From assembly GCF_004020365.1 (NCBI RefSeq), contig NZ_SAQR01000009.1: a DNA stretch of 64,000 nt. One strand, written 5' to 3'. How positions within the stretch are numbered: the stretch's first letter is position 1; the number at the start of each line of letters is the position of its first letter. Source of the DNA: Mesorhizobium sp. (GTDB lineage Bacteria; Pseudomonadota; Alphaproteobacteria; Rhizobiales; Rhizobiaceae). A program made the position numbers and the translations under genes. A model generated the notes under the pieces. The model was not told where the DNA came from, ran no database searches, and saw nothing but the letters and a program-made list of their open reading frames with translations. Below, one piece after another: positions 439-7,501 of the stretch.

Positions 439-1725
439 ATGACCAAGGATGTAAGCTTAGCCACGGCAGCAAGCACACGATGCGTCCACCAGAAGGACAC
501 TTCTCTTGCGCTCTTTGGAGGAGATCCCACGGTGCCGGCTGGGCGAGTTGTTCTTTGGCCAGCTGCGAAACGTAAACATTTGAAGGCGCTCGCAAATGTT
601 GTCGAAAGCGGCAAATATCATCGCGTCAATCACCCTATGGTGATTGAGCTCGAAAAGCGGCTAGCGGATTGGTCGGGTAACTGGTCTGTGCGCGCCGTTG
701 GAAGCGGCACAGCCGCTATTCACGTGGCTCTCGACTACTACCGGAACCGAGGTCGCCGAGTCGTTACGTCGGCTTTGAACTGGCCGGGAGCCGTCGGCCC
801 AATCGCGATCAGTGGACTCGAACCGGTCTTTGTCGATGTTGAGCCAGACCTTGCCGGAGTTGATGAGAAGATGGCGGCCTCCCTCATCAAGCCAGGTGAC
901 GCGGCGACGCTCATAACTCATCTGTTCGGAAATAACCTCTTGGTTCCCAGCTTGAGATTCGCGGCGCGAGCGCGAGGCGTGGCGATTATCGATGATGTTT
1001 GCCAATCAATTGGCGCTGCGAAAGATATTGTCAATGGAGCTTACTTGGAGAGCGATGCACTCTCTCTCTCCGGCAACGGAGCTAAACACCTCGGGGCAGG
1101 TGAGCTTGGATTTGTCCTGACGAGGGACCCTGCTCTGATCCACCATGTAGATAATGTTTCGCTGACAAGCTCGTCGCGATGTGGAGCTAGGATATTCTCC
1201 CCGAACTCCAAAGGCTACAATTACCGACCCAATGTATTCTCTGCTGCCATTGCTAATCACAGGCTCAAGCAGCTTGACCGGCAGCTTAAAAAAAGGCGAA
1301 GGAATGCTAGGTTCCTTTGGCAGGAGATTGGCCACCTCTCAGGGCTTCTGCCTCTTTTCGATCCAGCAGATCATCAACAATCGATGCTGAATCTCCCGTT
1401 GCGTCTTGAGCCGGAAAAGCTCGGTTTTCTACCTGGCCCTACGGCCAGGGATTTCATCATTAAGCTTCTTCAAGCCGAGGGAGTTCCCGTTGCGGTCTGG
1501 CTGACGAAGCCCGTCTTTGAATATCTGCCGGATATCTGCGGCCAATGGTCAAGGACCGATTTTCCAAACGCCATGAAGATATTGAACACCATGTTTTACG
1601 TGTCGGAGATCGCTCCACCAAACGACGTTGAAGTGATGAAATTGTACGCGGCCGCGTTTCAAAAGGTCTGGGCAGCGCTTCCAAACCTAGCTTCAAAAAT
1701 TCCTGAGATCGTATCTGTTGCCTGA
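439..1725 (+). CDS. DegT/DnrJ/EryC1/StrS-family PLP-dependent aminotransferase
   Basis: Family motifs PVFVDVEP, IIDDVCQSIGA, SGNGAKHLGAGELG (PLP lysine) and GYNYR. The ORF opens at GTG 388; ATG 439 is the preferred start. Confidence 0.85.
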   Translation: MTKDVSLATAASTRCVHQKDTSLALFGGDPTVPAGRVVLWPAAKRKHLKALANVVESGKYHRVNHPMVIELEKRLADWSGNWSVRAVGSGTAAIHVALDYYRNRGRRVVTSALNWPGAVGPIAISGLEPVFVDVEPDLAGVDEKMAASLIKPGDAATLITHLFGNNLLVPSLRFAARARGVAIIDDVCQSIGAAKDIVNGAYLESDALSLSGNGAKHLGAGELGFVLTRDPALIHHVDNVSLTSSSRCGARIFSPNSKGYNYRPNVFSAAIANHRLKQLDRQLKKRRRNARFLWQEIGHLSGLLPLFDPADHQQSMLNLPLRLEPEKLGFLPGPTARDFIIKLLQAEGVPVAVWLTKPVFEYLPDICGQWSRTDFPNAMKILNTMFYVSEIAPPNDVEVMKLYAAAFQKVWAALPNLASKIPEIVSVA

Positions 1726-1743
1726 GGGCGGGATGGCAAGCCG

Positions 1744-2499
1744 ATGGACTGCTCAATAAAAGGTTTTCCACCATATGGCTTTTCGATTGTTCTCAAATTC
1801 GGCGGGAGCATCATGCGTGATCTTGCCGTGTGTAAGCTCGCACTGGCTGAACTTGAGCGTCTCGCCGATAAGGGCCATCGAATCCTACTTGTTCCAGGCG
1901 GCGGCATCCCGGACAAAGCAATTGAGGCGATTGATGCAGCCGAGCGATTAGATCCGTGTACCGCGCATCATGCGTGTGCTCTAGCACAGGACCAAACGGG
2001 GTATTTGCTTGCGGATGCCGCCTTCTCTTCCAAACTAGTTCCATCGGCCAGCCTAGGCGAATGCCGAACTCTCGCGAGACTTGGGAAGATTCCAGTGCTG
2101 CTGCCTTCCCGTTTGCTGTTTGCGGCTGACCCAGTGGAATGGAGTTGGGACGTCACATCCGACGCCGTTGCCGCGTGGATCGCTTGGTTAACTGGGGCAC
2201 CACAGCTGGTGATTTTGACAGATGTCGATGGCGTGCATCGCGGTGGAGCAACCGACGATCCCGCTGCACTTATAGAGCAGATCGCTGCTCAAGATCTTGT
2301 CCTTCTCGGCCACACCTCGATTGACGCCTGCGCGGTCGAATTCATGGCGAAGAAAAGCCTTCCCGGCGTTGTGATTAATGCCCGTCATCCCGCTCGTCTC
2401 GCCGATTGGCTGGAAGGGAGACGCGTTAGAGCGACTAGGATCACCGTCGCGAGCAGGAAGGCCCATATCACAAGCGACCCTTTGGGGGGGGCGGCATGA
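1744..2499 (+). CDS. Amino-acid-kinase-superfamily small-molecule kinase, MfnE-like
   Basis: N-terminal VLKFGGS, VPGGG and ILTDVDGV motifs; the WSWDVTSDAVAAWIA segment resembles the MfnE/uridylate-kinase-like branch. Confidence 0.8.
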   Translation: MDCSIKGFPPYGFSIVLKFGGSIMRDLAVCKLALAELERLADKGHRILLVPGGGIPDKAIEAIDAAERLDPCTAHHACALAQDQTGYLLADAAFSSKLVPSASLGECRTLARLGKIPVLLPSRLLFAADPVEWSWDVTSDAVAAWIAWLTGAPQLVILTDVDGVHRGGATDDPAALIEQIAAQDLVLLGHTSIDACAVEFMAKKSLPGVVINARHPARLADWLEGRRVRATRITVASRKAHITSDPLGGAA

Positions 2500-3326
2500 T
2501 GTCATCCACGGCGCTGATAGTGTATGGCCCGGAAGTCGCGCGCTCTGGCCTAACCTCGCTGCTCGACGAATTTATTCGCCGGCGAACCGGTTTGGAACTC
2601 TCGGAACGGTTCTTTTCGATTCATAGTCGCAAATCCATTGATGCGTTTTATACCCTTACCTGTTCCACCGGCGGGAAGCATTGGCCATTGGTGCTGGACT
2701 TATTCGACATGCGTCCGGTTTGCGCCACGATCTGGAGCGGACCTAATGCGCTGCACTTGTCGCAAAAACTGAAGGGTAACACACAGCCGGCCCAGGCTTT
2801 ATCCGGCACCGTACGTAGTCTCTTTTTCTGCGATAATCCCGTGACGAACCTCCTTCATGTGAGCGATAGTCATCAAGTAATGGATGCTGAGCTGAGAATA
2901 CTTAGGTGCCGGTCGTTGGGCGACGAAGCGACTGCTTGGATTTCTCTCGATTCCGGCTACATTGCCCATTCATCTTTCCAAATGTTGCTAAACGTTCTCG
3001 GCGACAGGGGAGCTGCGCCGATGCCGGACAATCGGAGTGATGGTAGCGCGTTTGCCCACGCAAGATTCTGTTACGACAGAGCACTCCTAACCGCAGCAAA
3101 GTCGGGCCTAACGACAGCCGTCCAGCGGTATTTCCAGGGGGATCGAGCCGGTCTAGAAGGCCTCTTCCGGTATGCACCCCTCCGCTCATCTTGGGACCGC
3201 CTCATTCTTGAGGCCGGTCTGTTTTCAATGCCTCTTTGGAATTGCTTACTGAAGCGAACCGTTGATGCCGTCGAGCCGGGAAAACAACCAGGCATGGCAC
3301 CGCGCCGGAAGGCCGGAGAACAATGA
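2496..3326 (+). CDS. Nucleoside-diphosphate-kinase-like protein with C-terminal extension
   Basis: KLKGNTQPAQALSGTVRSLF...NLLHVSDS matches the NDK G-x-T-x-P-x-x-A-x-x-GT-x-R...N-x-x-H-x-SDS signature. ATGA overlap with the upstream gene. Confidence 0.7.
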   Translation: MMSSTALIVYGPEVARSGLTSLLDEFIRRRTGLELSERFFSIHSRKSIDAFYTLTCSTGGKHWPLVLDLFDMRPVCATIWSGPNALHLSQKLKGNTQPAQALSGTVRSLFFCDNPVTNLLHVSDSHQVMDAELRILRCRSLGDEATAWISLDSGYIAHSSFQMLLNVLGDRGAAPMPDNRSDGSAFAHARFCYDRALLTAAKSGLTTAVQRYFQGDRAGLEGLFRYAPLRSSWDRLILEAGLFSMPLWNCLLKRTVDAVEPGKQPGMAPRRKAGEQ

Positions 3327-4003
3327 GCGAACTTGATCGTATCAGGACAACGCTTCGGACAAGTCAACAAGCCACTTTCCCGCGTCAGATGCAGGCATTC
3401 GGACTGGATCTGGTCGTACAGGAAGGGGTTTTTCCTCCAGAGCACTTCCAGAGTTGGCGTTGGATTAGCGAGAATTTTCCCCCATTCGACGGAAAGACCG
3501 TCTTAGAAATCGGCTGCGGTTTCGGTCTTCCCGGCCTTCTGTTGGCAAAGACTGGCGCGCTGTCGTTGCTGACTTGTGACATCAATCCGAGGGCCGTCGC
3601 GAACACGTTGGAGAATGCTGCAAGAAACGGCATTAGTAACGTCGAGGTCATCGCAAGCGATATATTTAACAATGTTCCACCTGGCAGAAGGTTCGACATC
3701 ATATTTTGGAACTACCCGTCGAGCTACGCTCCAGAAGATTACGAGTTTGTCCACGACCTCGAAGGTGGTGCGATCGATCCAGGGTACAACTTGCTCGAGA
3801 GATTTCTTTCAGATGGCCCAAGGTTCCTTACGGAATCAGGTCGTATCGTTCTTGGGTTCGGCACTAATGCCCGTGACGACCTTCTTGAAAAGATTGCGGG
3901 TTCAAATGATCTCACATCTGTGCTTCTGCGAGCCGGGACCTATCCCGACGTCAACGTAACTTACAGGCTGTTCTCAATATCAAAGAAGGCCACAAGCGCA
4001 TGA
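3323..4003 (+). CDS. Class I SAM-dependent methyltransferase (HemK/MTS-like)
   Basis: VLEIGCGFG motif I, TCDINPRAV motif II and DIIFWNYP motif IV. ATGA overlap. Confidence 0.85.
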   Translation: MSELDRIRTTLRTSQQATFPRQMQAFGLDLVVQEGVFPPEHFQSWRWISENFPPFDGKTVLEIGCGFGLPGLLLAKTGALSLLTCDINPRAVANTLENAARNGISNVEVIASDIFNNVPPGRRFDIIFWNYPSSYAPEDYEFVHDLEGGAIDPGYNLLERFLSDGPRFLTESGRIVLGFGTNARDDLLEKIAGSNDLTSVLLRAGTYPDVNVTYRLFSISKKATSA

Positions 4004-4539
4004 TGCCCGAGCTGATGCGCATTGCGTTGGTCGCCATTTCGCGCAATCGGAGCAAAGATAGCTGGGTAGCGGGCAGTAGCGTCCTTTCGCAGTTCATCCA
4101 GCGTGCGCCGAACGACATTGACATTCATCATGTCAATTTGGCCGCATTCAATCAGGCTGTGGATAAGGATACCAGGGCTCTGGCGGACGCGGGGTTCTCC
4201 ATTGCCACATCGCGACCTGCCGACGCGGAGCTGGAGATCGTATTCTTGAGATCGAACGGGACCCTGGCGATAAATTGGGTTCTCGAACAGGAACGACCGA
4301 CGGCGTTAATCAACGATCCGCTTTTTGGGACAAGGGCGAGTTTCGCGGACGTCATCGCGCGAAAGGTCGAGATGCACCTGGAGAACCACCATTCGAAGCA
4401 CAGGGATGATCTCCTTGCACTCCTGGAGCATTCCGCCTCAATCTCGGCCGAAATGAGTCTGGACCAATTGGTTGGTAGCATCTCCGCGCTAGACCTCGCG
4501 AAATACGTCAATACCAACCTTCGTGGCAGCACGCGATAG
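4000..4539 (+). CDS. Putative nucleotidyltransferase-fold protein (AbiEii/Pol-beta-like)
   Basis: WVAGSSVL...RAPNDIDI resembles the G[GS]...DxD catalytic motif. ATGA overlap. Confidence 0.5.
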   Translation: MMPELMRIALVAISRNRSKDSWVAGSSVLSQFIQRAPNDIDIHHVNLAAFNQAVDKDTRALADAGFSIATSRPADAELEIVFLRSNGTLAINWVLEQERPTALINDPLFGTRASFADVIARKVEMHLENHHSKHRDDLLALLEHSASISAEMSLDQLVGSISALDLAKYVNTNLRGSTR

Positions 4540-5117: not shown

Positions 5118-5933
5118 TCAGACTTCCGCCATCTGCAGACACTGGCAAAGATATTCGCTCAGCAACACCAGAGGCGGCACGTGCATCGCCGACCCGGCCT
5201 GTGGCCAAGCCTCAGCCGAGGTAAACAATACCACCTCGTCCGCAGTCCGGGCGATCGGGCAGTCAACGCGGGTCGTAATGGCAATCGTGTATGCTCCGGT
5301 TTCGCGCGCAATAGCCAGAAAATCCTTGGTTTCCACAGTGTGGCCACGCGACGAAATGCCAATGGCGAGGCTCAACGAGCCAAGCCCTCGCGCGAGAGCG
5401 TGAGACACGGTGGCGGACCCCGAGCAATGTGCGGGGAAACCTAGGCAGATCAGTCGCATGGCCAGAATATCAGCGCAGACGGATGACGGCCCCGTGCCGA
5501 ACAGTTCGACGCGTCGGGCCGCTCGGATGCGGTTGGCAAACCCACTAATTTGAAGGTCGTCAAAACCACGAGCGGACGCGGAAATTGAGTTTTGTAAAGC
5601 AGAACTGAGGATGGCGATCCGAGGAGCTGTGTCTACAGCTTCTGATGGCGCGCGTTCAGCCAGTTCGCCGCTCAACTTCCGCCGCTCAATTTCGCCGCTG
5701 AGCGCAATCTTAAACTCGCGAAATCCCGAGAGTCCCAAGGTTCGGCAAAATCTTACAATTGAAGCAGAACCGGTAGCGGTGTTGCGCGCAAGGTCGGCAA
5801 TGGACAGCGCCAGAACAGCCTCGGGGTCTTGTGCAACATACAGAGCTATACGTGCGAGCGCATTCGGAGCCGTGTTAATTGCATCATAGATGATGTCTAG
5901 CAGCAATTTCTGTGTATGTCGGGGCTTCCGCAT
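5118..5933 (-). CDS. RpiR/MurR-family transcriptional regulator (HTH + SIS)
   Basis: LSIADLA...ASIVRFCRTLGLSGFREFK helix-turn-helix, followed by an SIS sugar-phosphate-binding domain (GTGPSS, GISSRGHT, AITT). Confidence 0.9.
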   Translation of the reverse strand: MRKPRHTQKLLLDIIYDAINTAPNALARIALYVAQDPEAVLALSIADLARNTATGSASIVRFCRTLGLSGFREFKIALSGEIERRKLSGELAERAPSEAVDTAPRIAILSSALQNSISASARGFDDLQISGFANRIRAARRVELFGTGPSSVCADILAMRLICLGFPAHCSGSATVSHALARGLGSLSLAIGISSRGHTVETKDFLAIARETGAYTIAITTRVDCPIARTADEVVLFTSAEAWPQAGSAMHVPPLVLLSEYLCQCLQMAEV

Positions 5934-6445
5934 GTGTCTTAGTGTTCGTTCCAAGCTGGCAGTCGACCCGCGAAGGCCTAGCAAAGCCCTGCATATTCGA
6001 GTCTCGCTGACGGTTCACTGACGCAGATCATAGACAAGGTCGATATCGGATTCCGGCTGCCGCTCCGTTCGCGCCCATGTCTCGGCAGTCGGGGCAATGG
6101 ACGCGAGGGCATGCGCTCGGCCGCTCGCGAGGCGGTCTTGCGAGTGGCCTCGTTTAACGACGTCTCCTGGCCCGATGCTGTCAATGGAGCTTACTTTACT
6201 GGCTGCGCATGCGCCGCGCAAACCGTGGTGTCCTCGTCGTCAGGGCAGTGGGGACGACTGCACGGCAACGCAAGCGGTGCCGTCTGGGAAAATATATTCA
6301 TTAGTATATTGGCGACATAACCAATCTTACTTGCGTTCTTCTATGATTAGGTTCATCGTCCGATCGAAAACGGGGGCATGACAAGGTGACTACATCTCTA
6401 GGGAACGCCGACGTGGCGTTTGGTAAATAGCTCATCTCAGCAAGT

Positions 6446-6634: not shown

Positions 6635-7501
6635 ATGTTTCACCCGCTTCCAGAAGAGCTGCGCGATATCGCGGGTCAACCCTTTCCACTTTATCCCTGC
6701 TCGAATGAATCTTGGTCAATCAAGCCGACGGCCGGCCGCTCAAGCTCGCGGGTTATGATATGTTCCATTCCGAAGGCGGGCACCCACCTATATGCCCGTC
6801 TGCTTGGACTGCTCGGGCTTGTACAGTCCGATGTGTTCTTTAATAAAGACTATCTTGGAGACTTCCGCTTTGTGGATGTCGAGCGAGCTCGCTTCACTCA
6901 TTCCGAAAATATTCTATGGATACCGATCGAGATATCCTCGCGCTTTATTCAGCCCGGTCAGTTTGGCTATGGGCATCTACCGTGCGACATCGGCACTCGC
7001 CATTGTTTAGCGGATTTCAAGATCGTCTTTCTTTCGCGCGAAATGCGTGCGGCAATTGTGTCGCAGATGCGATATGTAGGTGACAGCGATTGGTGCCCGC
7101 CTGAGAGGGCTGAGATTACGTGGCGCAATGAGCCGGACGGACCTGACAAAATGCTGAAGTACTTCGATGAGATCGCGCCTTTCATTTTCAATGATCGCTG
7201 CCATCCAGTGGCACCGTGGGCGGATCAGGAGAATGTTCTTGGATTGAGCTATGAGCAGATCATAGGCGACCAAGGACGCGAAGTTCAGCTCGAGACCATT
7301 CGCAGAATTGTAGAGTTTTGCGAGATCGAGCGGCCGCCGCAGCCTGAGCTGATCTTAAACCAGCTAATCGGACAGCAGACCTTCACCCTGTCCAGCGGGC
7401 GAACTTCGTGGGAGGCTTGCTGGAATGCCGAGATCGAGGCGCGGTTTACCGCGCTGGGAGGGACGAGACTCAACGAGCGATTCGGATTTGGTTCGAGATA
7501 G
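6635..7501 (+). CDS. Sulfotransferase-domain protein
   Basis: SIPKAGTHL (5'-PSB loop) and R-x7-S (REMRAAIVS, 3'-PB motif). GAGGA RBS before ATG 6635. Confidence 0.7.
   Translation: MFHPLPEELRDIAGQPFPLYPCSNESWSIKPTAGRSSSRVMICSIPKAGTHLYARLLGLLGLVQSDVFFNKDYLGDFRFVDVERARFTHSENILWIPIEISSRFIQPGQFGYGHLPCDIGTRHCLADFKIVFLSREMRAAIVSQMRYVGDSDWCPPERAEITWRNEPDGPDKMLKYFDEIAPFIFNDRCHPVAPWADQENVLGLSYEQIIGDQGREVQLETIRRIVEFCEIERPPQPELILNQLIGQQTFTLSSGRTSWEACWNAEIEARFTALGGTRLNERFGFGSR

Follow-up and report, generated by a model that had tools for sequence, protein, structure and literature searches.

An aminotransferase–kinase–NDK-like–nucleotidyltransferase operon of Mesorhizobium as a candidate pathway to a phosphate-linked amino compound

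What is made by an operon that combines an aminotransferase, two phosphotransferases, a methyltransferase and a nucleotidyltransferase? The question is raised by five genes at positions 439-4539 of a 64,000-nucleotide stretch of Mesorhizobium sp. DNA (assembly GCF_004020365.1, contig NZ_SAQR01000009.1), referred to here in its full length as the window; the host genome is 7.24 Mb. The operon is real and conserved, and it very probably encodes a genuine, uncharacterised pathway acting on a phosphorylated amine. More tentatively, and somewhat short of an even chance, we propose that it forms a make-and-consume cassette, in which five enzymatic steps would yield a phosphate-linked amino compound and neighbouring genes would take that compound up and dismantle it. 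A full-text literature search, outside whose coverage many subscription journals lie, returned no paper describing the cassette.

The five open reading frames (ORFs) all lie on the + strand, at 439-1725, 1744-2499, 2496-3326, 3323-4003 and 4000-4539. Genes 1 and 2 are separated by an 18-bp spacer, whereas the stop and start codons of successive genes from 2 to 5 overlap as ATGA, at 2496, 3323 and 4000. The start of gene 1 is placed at the ATG at 439 rather than the GTG at 388 because the former matches the N-terminus of the Sinorhizobium meliloti orthologue. Pairwise ratios of nonsynonymous to synonymous substitution rates (dN/dS), calculated against orthologues 57-91% identical, are 0.07-0.37 across all five genes; values this low indicate that the genes are maintained by selection. 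A preliminary description of this DNA, prepared from the letters alone, had reported five intact, co-oriented ORFs with ATGA overlaps among the last four, and that layout is borne out, with purifying selection on all five. The enzyme families that it named are also real, as judged by hidden Markov model searches for genes 1-4 and by predicted structure for gene 5. Its remark that much nearby DNA is decayed holds for a second RpiR-family gene upstream, which is a pseudogene, but not for the adjacent RpiR gene, the sulfotransferase gene or the upstream ABC transporter, phosphoesterase and HAD genes, which are intact.

Conservation was assessed in a comparison set of 30 genome and plasmid loci and 35 metagenome stretches, the metagenome loci having been located by a degenerate DNA pattern scan. 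The order aminotransferase, amino-acid-kinase-fold kinase (AAK), nucleoside-diphosphate-kinase-like (NDK-like) protein and nucleotidyltransferase (NTase) recurs among these loci wherever the flank suffices. This core is present in about 40 loci (23 genome loci plus plasmid loci, spanning at least five genera, and about 15 metagenome loci), so that the genes co-occur across many genomes. Its carriers are Mesorhizobium, Rhizobium, Sinorhizobium, Neorhizobium, Roseibium and Inquilinus, as well as metagenomes. Conjugative symbiotic plasmids (pSyms) of Rhizobium and Sinorhizobium bear the cassette, as does a Roseibium plasmid, and it is chromosomal in Inquilinus and in a metagenome-assembled genome (MAG) of the Hyphomicrobiales. 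Non-symbiotic bacteria are therefore represented as well, by Inquilinus, Roseibium and soil and aquatic metagenomes. Within the genus, the NDK-like gene is found in 10 of 195 species-representative genomes (about 5%). The cassette is conserved and moves horizontally, with pSyms and symbiosis islands as its carriers. The genus includes three complete genomes with the cassette, and in these nifH lies approximately 180-450 kb from the locus, which fits a location on the symbiosis island and supports the earlier placement of the operon in a symbiosis region. The comparison redraws the boundaries of the unit, however. The operon itself is conserved, as had been proposed, but what is conserved is not a five-gene set: it consists of the aminotransferase, AAK, NDK-like and NTase genes plus an adjacent uptake and hydrolysis set, with the methyltransferase optional.

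Gene 1 (439..1725, +) encodes a 428-aa aminotransferase of the DegT/DnrJ/EryC1/StrS family that depends on pyridoxal phosphate (PLP) (Pfam DegT_DnrJ_EryC1, 3.4e-45). Its PLP lysine is kept and aligns with the catalytic lysine of BtrR, which argues for a transaminase and not a dehydratase. Among its PDB matches (8gyh, 7b0m, 5w71 and 2c7t), the nearest solved relatives are aminocyclitol aminotransferases for 2-deoxy-scyllo-inosose or scyllo-inosose; NtdA is more distant (6.5e-12). The orthologue in the S. meliloti cluster is 70% identical, and the dN/dS of gene 1 is 0.15. In distant versions of the cassette, from a Phycisphaerae MAG and from locus L039, a class-III aminotransferase stands in the place of DegT.

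The likely form of the DegT product is indicated by a second arrangement of the same orthogroup. On Rhizobium pSyms, DegT proteins 65-68% identical to gene 1 occur in a sister module with the layout ROK / DegT-HAD phosphatase-(GNAT), which was found in 64 plasmid records and appears to be uncharacterised. Examples are in R. tropici CIAT 899 (pSym; L037:7284-10986) and R. leguminosarum bv. trifolii WSM1325 (L038:7235-11690), and both Rhizobium sp. 007 and R. leguminosarum CC278f have the sister module and the cassette at a single locus. The position of DegT upstream of a HAD phosphatase and a GNAT suggests that its product is a phosphate ester with a free amine. The genes beside DegT elsewhere encode glycerol-1-phosphate-dehydrogenase-like and NagB-like proteins in Inquilinus, a NagB-II-like protein in R. 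leguminosarum, and a 1-deoxy-D-xylulose-5-phosphate (DXP)-synthase-like enzyme in metagenomic contig L042; judged by family, these proteins would generate or interconvert keto-phosphates. In WSM1325, a gene of the glycerophosphodiester-phosphodiesterase family follows the sister module.

Gene 2 (1744..2499, +) encodes a 251-aa AAK (Pfam AA_kinase, 7e-23) that is closest to MfnE. MfnE is its best NCBIfam model (1.9e-28), with a score of 99.6 bits that lies below the equivalog cut-off of 300, and its best PDB match is 7qrh (2e-18). Kinship with FomA or isopentenyl phosphate kinase (IPK) was considered and dropped because chains of neither enzyme were found in the PDB search (E<=0.01). Wherever the flank of a related locus is long enough, the AAK and NDK-like genes are adjacent.

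Gene 3 (2496..3326, +) encodes an unusual two-domain phosphotransferase-like protein. Residues 13-135 of its 276-aa product match the NDK family (Pfam NDK, 1.3e-11), and the protein scores 43.9 bits on the NDK equivalog model against a cut-off of 155. In the predicted model (pLDDT 87.5), the N-terminal domain superimposes on NDKs with a root-mean-square deviation of 1.9 Å over 133 residues, and the C-terminal part forms a conserved helical domain of approximately 130 aa. This second domain has no structural match; Foldseek alignments of the whole model are confined to the NDK domain. A profile search of 1.84 billion protein representatives recovered about 60 full-length two-domain members, and a word-indexed search gave only 29 clusters at 90% identity, almost all of them rhizobial. 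In the close family, H121, S123, E132, N118, R107, T96 and Y52 show little or no variation, and the NxxHxSD catalytic motif is present in 53 of the 60 NDK-like representatives. K12 and R88 are nucleotide-contacting residues of canonical NDK. The position of K12 is occupied by an invariant glycine (G11) in the gene 3 family, and that of R88 is variable. Retention of the phospho-histidine set together with loss of conservation at K12 and R88 suggests an active phosphotransferase whose acceptor would be something other than a standard nucleotide. In 15 of the 60 representatives the NDK-like protein is fused to an NTase, giving chains of approximately 440 aa, and the C-terminal extension carries the GS..DxD motif in all but one of the 15. 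These fusions indicate joint action of the NDK-like enzyme and the NTase. A distant two-domain subfamily (P0042-like; L054:3702-4592, L055:3156-4085 and L073) is found without AAK or NTase neighbours, and its genes adjoin a MarR regulator and an ABC-2 exporter, or an APH-family kinase; given these varied surroundings, the extra domain is not tied to one context.

Gene 5 (4000..4539, +) encodes the NTase, a 179-aa protein with no match in Pfam, NCBIfam or PDB sequence searches. An AlphaFold model built from 17 homologues (pLDDT 91.7) and Foldseek assign it to the small NTases of the Pol-beta superfamily, with a JHP933/AbiEii-like fold. The matches include Helicobacter pylori JHP933 (4ok0/4o8s, 4e-6) and the AbiEii-like TglT (7e-4), and the Foldseek probability is 1.0 against JHP933, TglT and the palm domains of Pol beta and mu. 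The protein carries a GS-x12-DIDI motif; G25, S26, D39, D41, H43, E77, K122, K133 and D137 are invariant in its family. The Pol-beta signature hG[GS]-x9-13-DxD is thus present together with the third carboxylate (E77) and the fold. In Neorhizobium lilium (L020:10783-11739) and Sinorhizobium sp. CB7 (L021:10789-11766), the NTase runs into the approximately 148-aa partner of a GMC oxidoreductase in one frame of 318-325 aa. Such a frame would link the NTase to an oxidoreductase step, although the fusion is an apparent one that may be an effect of assembly or ORF calling.

Gene 4 (3323..4003, +) encodes a 226-aa class I S-adenosylmethionine (SAM) methyltransferase of the MTS/HemK-like type (Pfam MTS, 1.6e-12). 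Its best PDB matches are the gentamicin 3''-N-methyltransferase GenN (2e-12), an apramycin N-methyltransferase and phosphoethanolamine N-methyltransferases, and it is probably an amine N-methyltransferase with a small amine as its substrate. A PADLOC match to mad2 reflects generic similarity of the methyltransferase domain. The gene is missing from about half of the related loci, which makes it an optional accessory. It lies between the NDK-like and NTase genes in the group formed by Mesorhizobium, R. mongolense and R. grahamii and after the NTase gene in others, and it is fused or adjacent to a class-III aminotransferase gene in S. meliloti and other loci (L024, L027, L029 and L032). In S. 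meliloti, the fusion of MTS methyltransferase and class-III aminotransferase is 672 aa long (L009:5468-7486, - strand) and divergent from the DegT operon.

These assignments allow a pathway to be proposed. DegT would transaminate a keto compound bearing a phosphate ester; central metabolism offers candidates in the phosphates of keto-sugars, keto-polyols and inososes. In the window, the GenN-like methyltransferase would N-methylate the new amine. MfnE converts a phosphate monoester to a diphosphate, and in methanofuran synthesis it works on the phosphate of an amine produced by a transaminase. The MfnE-like kinase would likewise convert the phosphate monoester of the amine to a diphosphate. 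The NDK-like enzyme would then add a third phosphate via its phospho-histidine, giving a non-nucleoside "triphosphate". Finally, the Pol-beta NTase would take this triphosphate as a surrogate for a nucleoside triphosphate (NTP) and release pyrophosphate, so that an amino-X-phosphate would be placed on a hydroxyl acceptor as a phosphodiester. The preliminary description had read the operon as amination, two phosphorylations, N-methylation and nucleotidyl transfer. This remains the most economical reading, and it is strengthened by the NDK-like::NTase fusions and by the likeness of gene 4 to aminoglycoside N-methyltransferases. The products offered with it, a nucleotide analogue or an antibiotic, are not indicated. 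Nothing indicates the suggested nucleoside or C-nucleoside scaffold: the 18 kb upstream hold no MfnB-like gene and no base- or ribose-forming enzyme. By their family assignments, the neighbours instead suggest the phosphate of an amino-sugar or polyol, with a phosphodiester as the product.

The neighbouring genes are consistent with consumption of such a product. The DNA directly upstream of the operon encodes an ABC importer resembling UgpBAEC, two SpdA/CpdA-like phosphodiesterases, two HADs of the sugar-phosphatase-like type, a GntR regulator and an insertion sequence (IS) element; the metallophosphoesterases are closest to the rhizobial 2',3'-cyclic-nucleotide phosphodiesterase SpdA and to CpdA. 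A similar set lies within 10 kb of most loci, comprising a UgpB/UgpC-like ABC importer, one or two SpdA/CpdA-like metallophosphoesterases, sugar-phosphatase-like HADs, and RpiR and/or GntR. This set would import the phosphodiester and dismantle it. Its position beside the cassette suggests a paired make-and-consume system, as in the opines, rhizopine and agrocinopine. Fuller versions of the locus add a class-III aminotransferase resembling glutamate-1-semialdehyde (GSA) aminomutase, a GNAT, an EamA or MFS exporter, and a GMC oxidoreductase with a pyranose-oxidase-like C-terminus and its partner of approximately 148 aa. The exporters and the GNAT of these versions point to a secreted product. 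Orthologues of the extras were not found in the window's genome, where the sole GMC match is a 38-40% identical paralogue on another contig; the window's copy is accordingly a reduced version. A different setting is seen on soil metagenome contig Ga0157370_10002459 (L042:299-12733), where an NDK-like::NTase fusion and DegT lie among genes for the DXP-synthase-like protein, two D-Ala-D-Ala-ligase-like ATP-grasp proteins, a dTMP-kinase-like protein, an AAK, a GT2 glycosyltransferase, and condensation and adenylation domains of the nonribosomal peptide synthetase (NRPS) type. The gene content of this contig resembles that of a natural-product cluster with the cassette at its centre.

Several observations weigh against the proposed pathway. 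The window's copy has neither an exporter nor an enzyme that makes a keto substrate, and the GntR and RpiR regulators with the adjacent importer are equally typical of purely catabolic loci. To our knowledge, no Pol-beta NTase uses a non-nucleoside triphosphate. The NTase could instead simply use ATP or CTP to nucleotidylylate the amino compound, in which case the NDK-like protein would supply the NTP. In two loci a gene of the phosphoenolpyruvate (PEP) mutase clade takes the place of DegT, which hints at phosphonate chemistry. Lastly, a pattern search of the 1.6 kb upstream found no TGGCAC-N5-TTGCW (allowing up to one mismatch) and no TGT-N10-ACA, with no match to a NifA/RpoN, FixK, nod-box or tts-box element. 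With neither NifA/RpoN nor nod-box nor tts-box promoters found, there is no support for synthesis confined to symbiosis, which is a hallmark of rhizopine.

Other functions can be considered for the same genes. The locus could be catabolic or dedicated to salvage, such that an amino phosphodiester imported from plant or microbe is cleaved, DegT deaminates the product (transaminases being reversible) and the kinases re-activate the fragment. This explanation would account for the importer, phosphodiesterases and HAD phosphatases that adjoin most loci, for the GntR and RpiR regulators typical of catabolic operons, for the NagB-like deaminases and ROK protein of some loci, and for a window copy that has no exporter. 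We nevertheless consider it unlikely: a SAM N-methyltransferase, an MfnE-like pyrophosphorylating kinase, an NDK-like protein and an NTase are anabolic enzyme types, re-phosphorylation directly after dephosphorylation would be futile, the fuller versions carry exporters and GNATs within the same operon, and one metagenomic copy sits among NRPS-like and ATP-grasp biosynthetic genes. The same chemistry could also be directed at a surface polymer, with lipopolysaccharide (LPS), exopolysaccharide (EPS) or cyclic glucan as the acceptor of a decoration resembling phosphoethanolamine or phosphocholine. Surface-sugar pathways are where DegT enzymes occur most often, two distant metagenomic contexts have GT2 glycosyltransferases close to the cassette, and the loci of Mesorhizobium and Rhizobium sp. 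007 have sulfotransferase and sulfatase genes as neighbours. However, approximately 20 kb of rhizobial flanks contain no glycosyltransferase, flippase, polymerase, or nucleoside diphosphate (NDP)-sugar synthase or dehydratase. A check of ORFs in about 18 kb of upstream and 5 kb of downstream DNA, and of annotated rhizobial relatives, for the marks of an LPS/EPS locus (NDP-sugar synthase/dehydratase, glycosyltransferases, Wzx/Wzy and an ABC exporter) likewise found none. Moreover, DegT is nearer to aminocyclitol than to NDP-sugar aminotransferases, and the recurrent importer and phosphodiesterase set, with the exporters, suits a soluble compound. A surface role is therefore quite unlikely.

Aminophosphonate synthesis is improbable to a similar degree. 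In that scheme, a keto-phosphonate such as phosphonopyruvate or phosphonoacetaldehyde would be transaminated, pyrophosphorylated in a FomA/FomB-like manner and activated for transfer. AAK-fold kinases can phosphorylate phosphonates, as FomA does. Directly 5' of the AAK gene in Rhizobium sp. 007 (plasmid; L005:7700-8617) and R. mongolense USDA 1844 (L019, at approximately 8.0 kb) is the PEP-mutase-clade gene mentioned above, whose product has an FPKxNS motif, and a pepM gene is reported from the symbiosis island of M. loti R7A (PMC3538637), both of which favor this scheme. The PEP-mutase-like protein falls under its family cut-off, however (TIGR02320, 239 bits against 319.55); its EDK motif is changed to DGK, and it may be a degenerate or repurposed mutase. 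In both of these strains DegT is located elsewhere. No PEP mutase homologue is present in the window's genome or in most loci, FomA is not among the PDB matches of the AAK, and the HAD (sugar-phosphatase-like), NagB-like, ROK and RpiR neighbours indicate sugar phosphates. Least probable, to the point of being nearly negligible, is that the NTase is an AbiEii/MenT-like toxin or part of a defence locus and the metabolic genes are chance neighbours. In its favor, JHP933 and the toxin TglT are the structures that match the NTase best, and the methyltransferase has its PADLOC match to mad2. Yet that match is generic, and the other four of the five proteins have none; the defence reading was rejected on this ground. 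There is no antitoxin partner, the NTase gene being flanked by the methyltransferase and RpiR genes. In addition, the NTase is translationally coupled to metabolic enzymes, syntenic with them across phyla, and fused to the NDK-like enzyme. A phosphate-linked amino compound, made and consumed by the products of one locus, remains our tentative reading.

The remaining features around the operon bear on its regulation and setting. Convergent with it is an RpiR/MurR-family gene (5118..5984, - strand), whose product has HTH_6 and SIS sugar-phosphate-binding domains (Pfam HTH_6 1.9e-16, SIS 3e-9) and is probably the regulator of the locus; an RpiR gene is likewise found after the cassette in loci of Mesorhizobium, Rhizobium sp. 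007, R. grahamii and Neorhizobium and in those from metagenomes. The second, upstream RpiR-family gene (L008:13595-14380) has four in-frame stops and is followed by an intact IS256/Mutator-family transposase gene (L008:15081-16199). The pseudogene and the IS256 (contig C277, approximately 37.6-40.2 kb) have the HAD and phosphoesterase genes on one side and, on the other, the GntR gene located ahead of the operon. Downstream, a stand-alone sulfotransferase is encoded at 6635..7501 (+ strand; Sulfotransfer_1, 1.3e-6). Orthologues 80-100% identical to it lie beside the cassette in L005 and L014-L017, only in the Mesorhizobium/Rhizobium sp. 007 lineage, and its membership in the cassette is uncertain. 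An intact sulfatase-like gene upstream (L008:3116-4594) is 88% identical to the Rhizobium sp. 007 sulfatase gene; the sulfotransferase and sulfatase-like genes accompany the cassette only in the lineage of Mesorhizobium, Rhizobium sp. 007 and R. mongolense.

The cassette can be regarded as an accessory small-molecule locus on symbiotic replicons that is built on an undescribed enzyme trio. A stronger proposal is that the AAK, the two-domain NDK-like protein and the Pol-beta NTase form an undescribed activation route, in which the phosphate of a metabolite would be raised to a non-nucleoside triphosphate that the NTase takes as donor for a phosphodiester; in rhizobia, the route would lead to an opine-like amino phosphodiester private to carriers of the importer and phosphodiesterases. 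We regard this proposal as doubtful. The two-domain NDK-like family, with its phospho-histidine retained, its nucleotide-contacting residues lost and an NTase fused to it in a quarter of its representatives, is a defined and testable candidate for new phosphoryl- or phosphodiester-transfer chemistry, of interest to enzymologists. Should the product prove to be a common amino-sugar nucleotide, what remains is one more accessory sugar pathway, albeit a new one.

The preliminary description could match the operon to no known pathway, and none was found here among rhizopine mos, methanofuran, kanosamine, LPS/EPS, FomA/B and defence systems. Each known system that comes closest shares only part of the cassette. 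Gene 3 has the fold of canonical Ndk and its phospho-histidine catalytic set (H, S, E, N, R, T and Y), but it is a 276-aa protein with an extra helical domain, whereas canonical Ndk is a single domain of about 140-150 aa. It also differs in that K12 and R88 are not conserved, in its score of 43.9 against 155 bits, and in being operon-linked or fused to an AAK and a Pol-beta NTase. The methanofuran enzymes MfnC and MfnE offer a precedent for the early steps: a transaminase acts on a carbonyl compound with a phosphate ester, and an AAK-fold kinase then makes the diphosphate for coupling. The kinase of the cassette nonetheless scores 99.6 against 300 bits, its aminotransferase is DegT-type and not MfnC-like, and an NDK-like step and an NTase are added. 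No genes of the MfnB, MfnC, MfnD or MfnF type are found in the 18 kb upstream of the window, and none of the MfnB, MfnD or MfnF type in the flanks of the related loci compared.

The kanosamine pathways NtdABC and KabABC pair an aminotransferase acting on a keto-sugar phosphate with a HAD phosphatase. Cj1437 is a transaminase that converts dihydroxyacetone phosphate to serinol-phosphate (PMC11800397). The shape of these pathways is shared by the ROK / DegT-HAD-GNAT sister module of Rhizobium pSyms. The cassette differs from the kanosamine pathway in that NtdA is distant (6.5e-12), an NtdC-type dehydrogenase is lacking, and the phosphate would be extended, not removed. A precedent for the consuming half is agrocinopine, a sugar phosphodiester that serves as a private nutrient or signal in Agrobacterium, where the acc genes provide ABC uptake, the phosphodiesterase AccF, the phosphatase AccG and a sugar-phosphate-responsive repressor. 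The flanking genes of the window follow the same logic of uptake and cleavage, although their products (metallophosphoesterases and HADs) belong to other families. The synthesis of agrocinopine takes place in the plant, is catalysed by an enzyme of the T-DNA, and involves no amine and no AAK/NDK/NTase route.

An ecological parallel is the rhizopine 3-O-methyl-scyllo-inosamine of S. meliloti L5-30, specified by mosBCDEF and moc (PMC6668481). The mos locus comprises mosB, mosC and mosDEF, with no kinase or NTase gene (PMC6668481), and rhizopine contains no phosphate, whereas the cassette has an AAK, an NDK-like protein and an NTase. The importer of the present locus is Ugp-like, for phosphorylated solutes. 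The window is further distinguished by having no dehydrogenase, exporter, moc-type genes or NifA/RpoN promoter; no orthologue of the GMC or small-subunit gene and no MFS/EamA exporter gene is present in its cluster or contig. Both systems are nevertheless patchy accessory traits on rhizobial symbiotic replicons, both have as a key step a DegT-family aminotransferase that acts, or would act, on a keto-cyclitol or keto-sugar, and in both the synthesis genes adjoin genes for uptake and catabolism. In the fuller relatives, the FAD-dependent (GMC) dehydrogenase with its small partner resembles mosDE(F), and the MFS/EamA exporter resembles mosC. Rhizopines show that competition in the rhizosphere can be shaped by private bacterial nutrients or signals encoded on symbiotic replicons, and engineering has turned them into a means of signalling from plant to microbe (PMC6668481). 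If the proposed pathway is correct, the cassette would be a second, chemically different make-and-consume system beside rhizopine, of interest to rhizobium ecologists and synthetic biologists alike.

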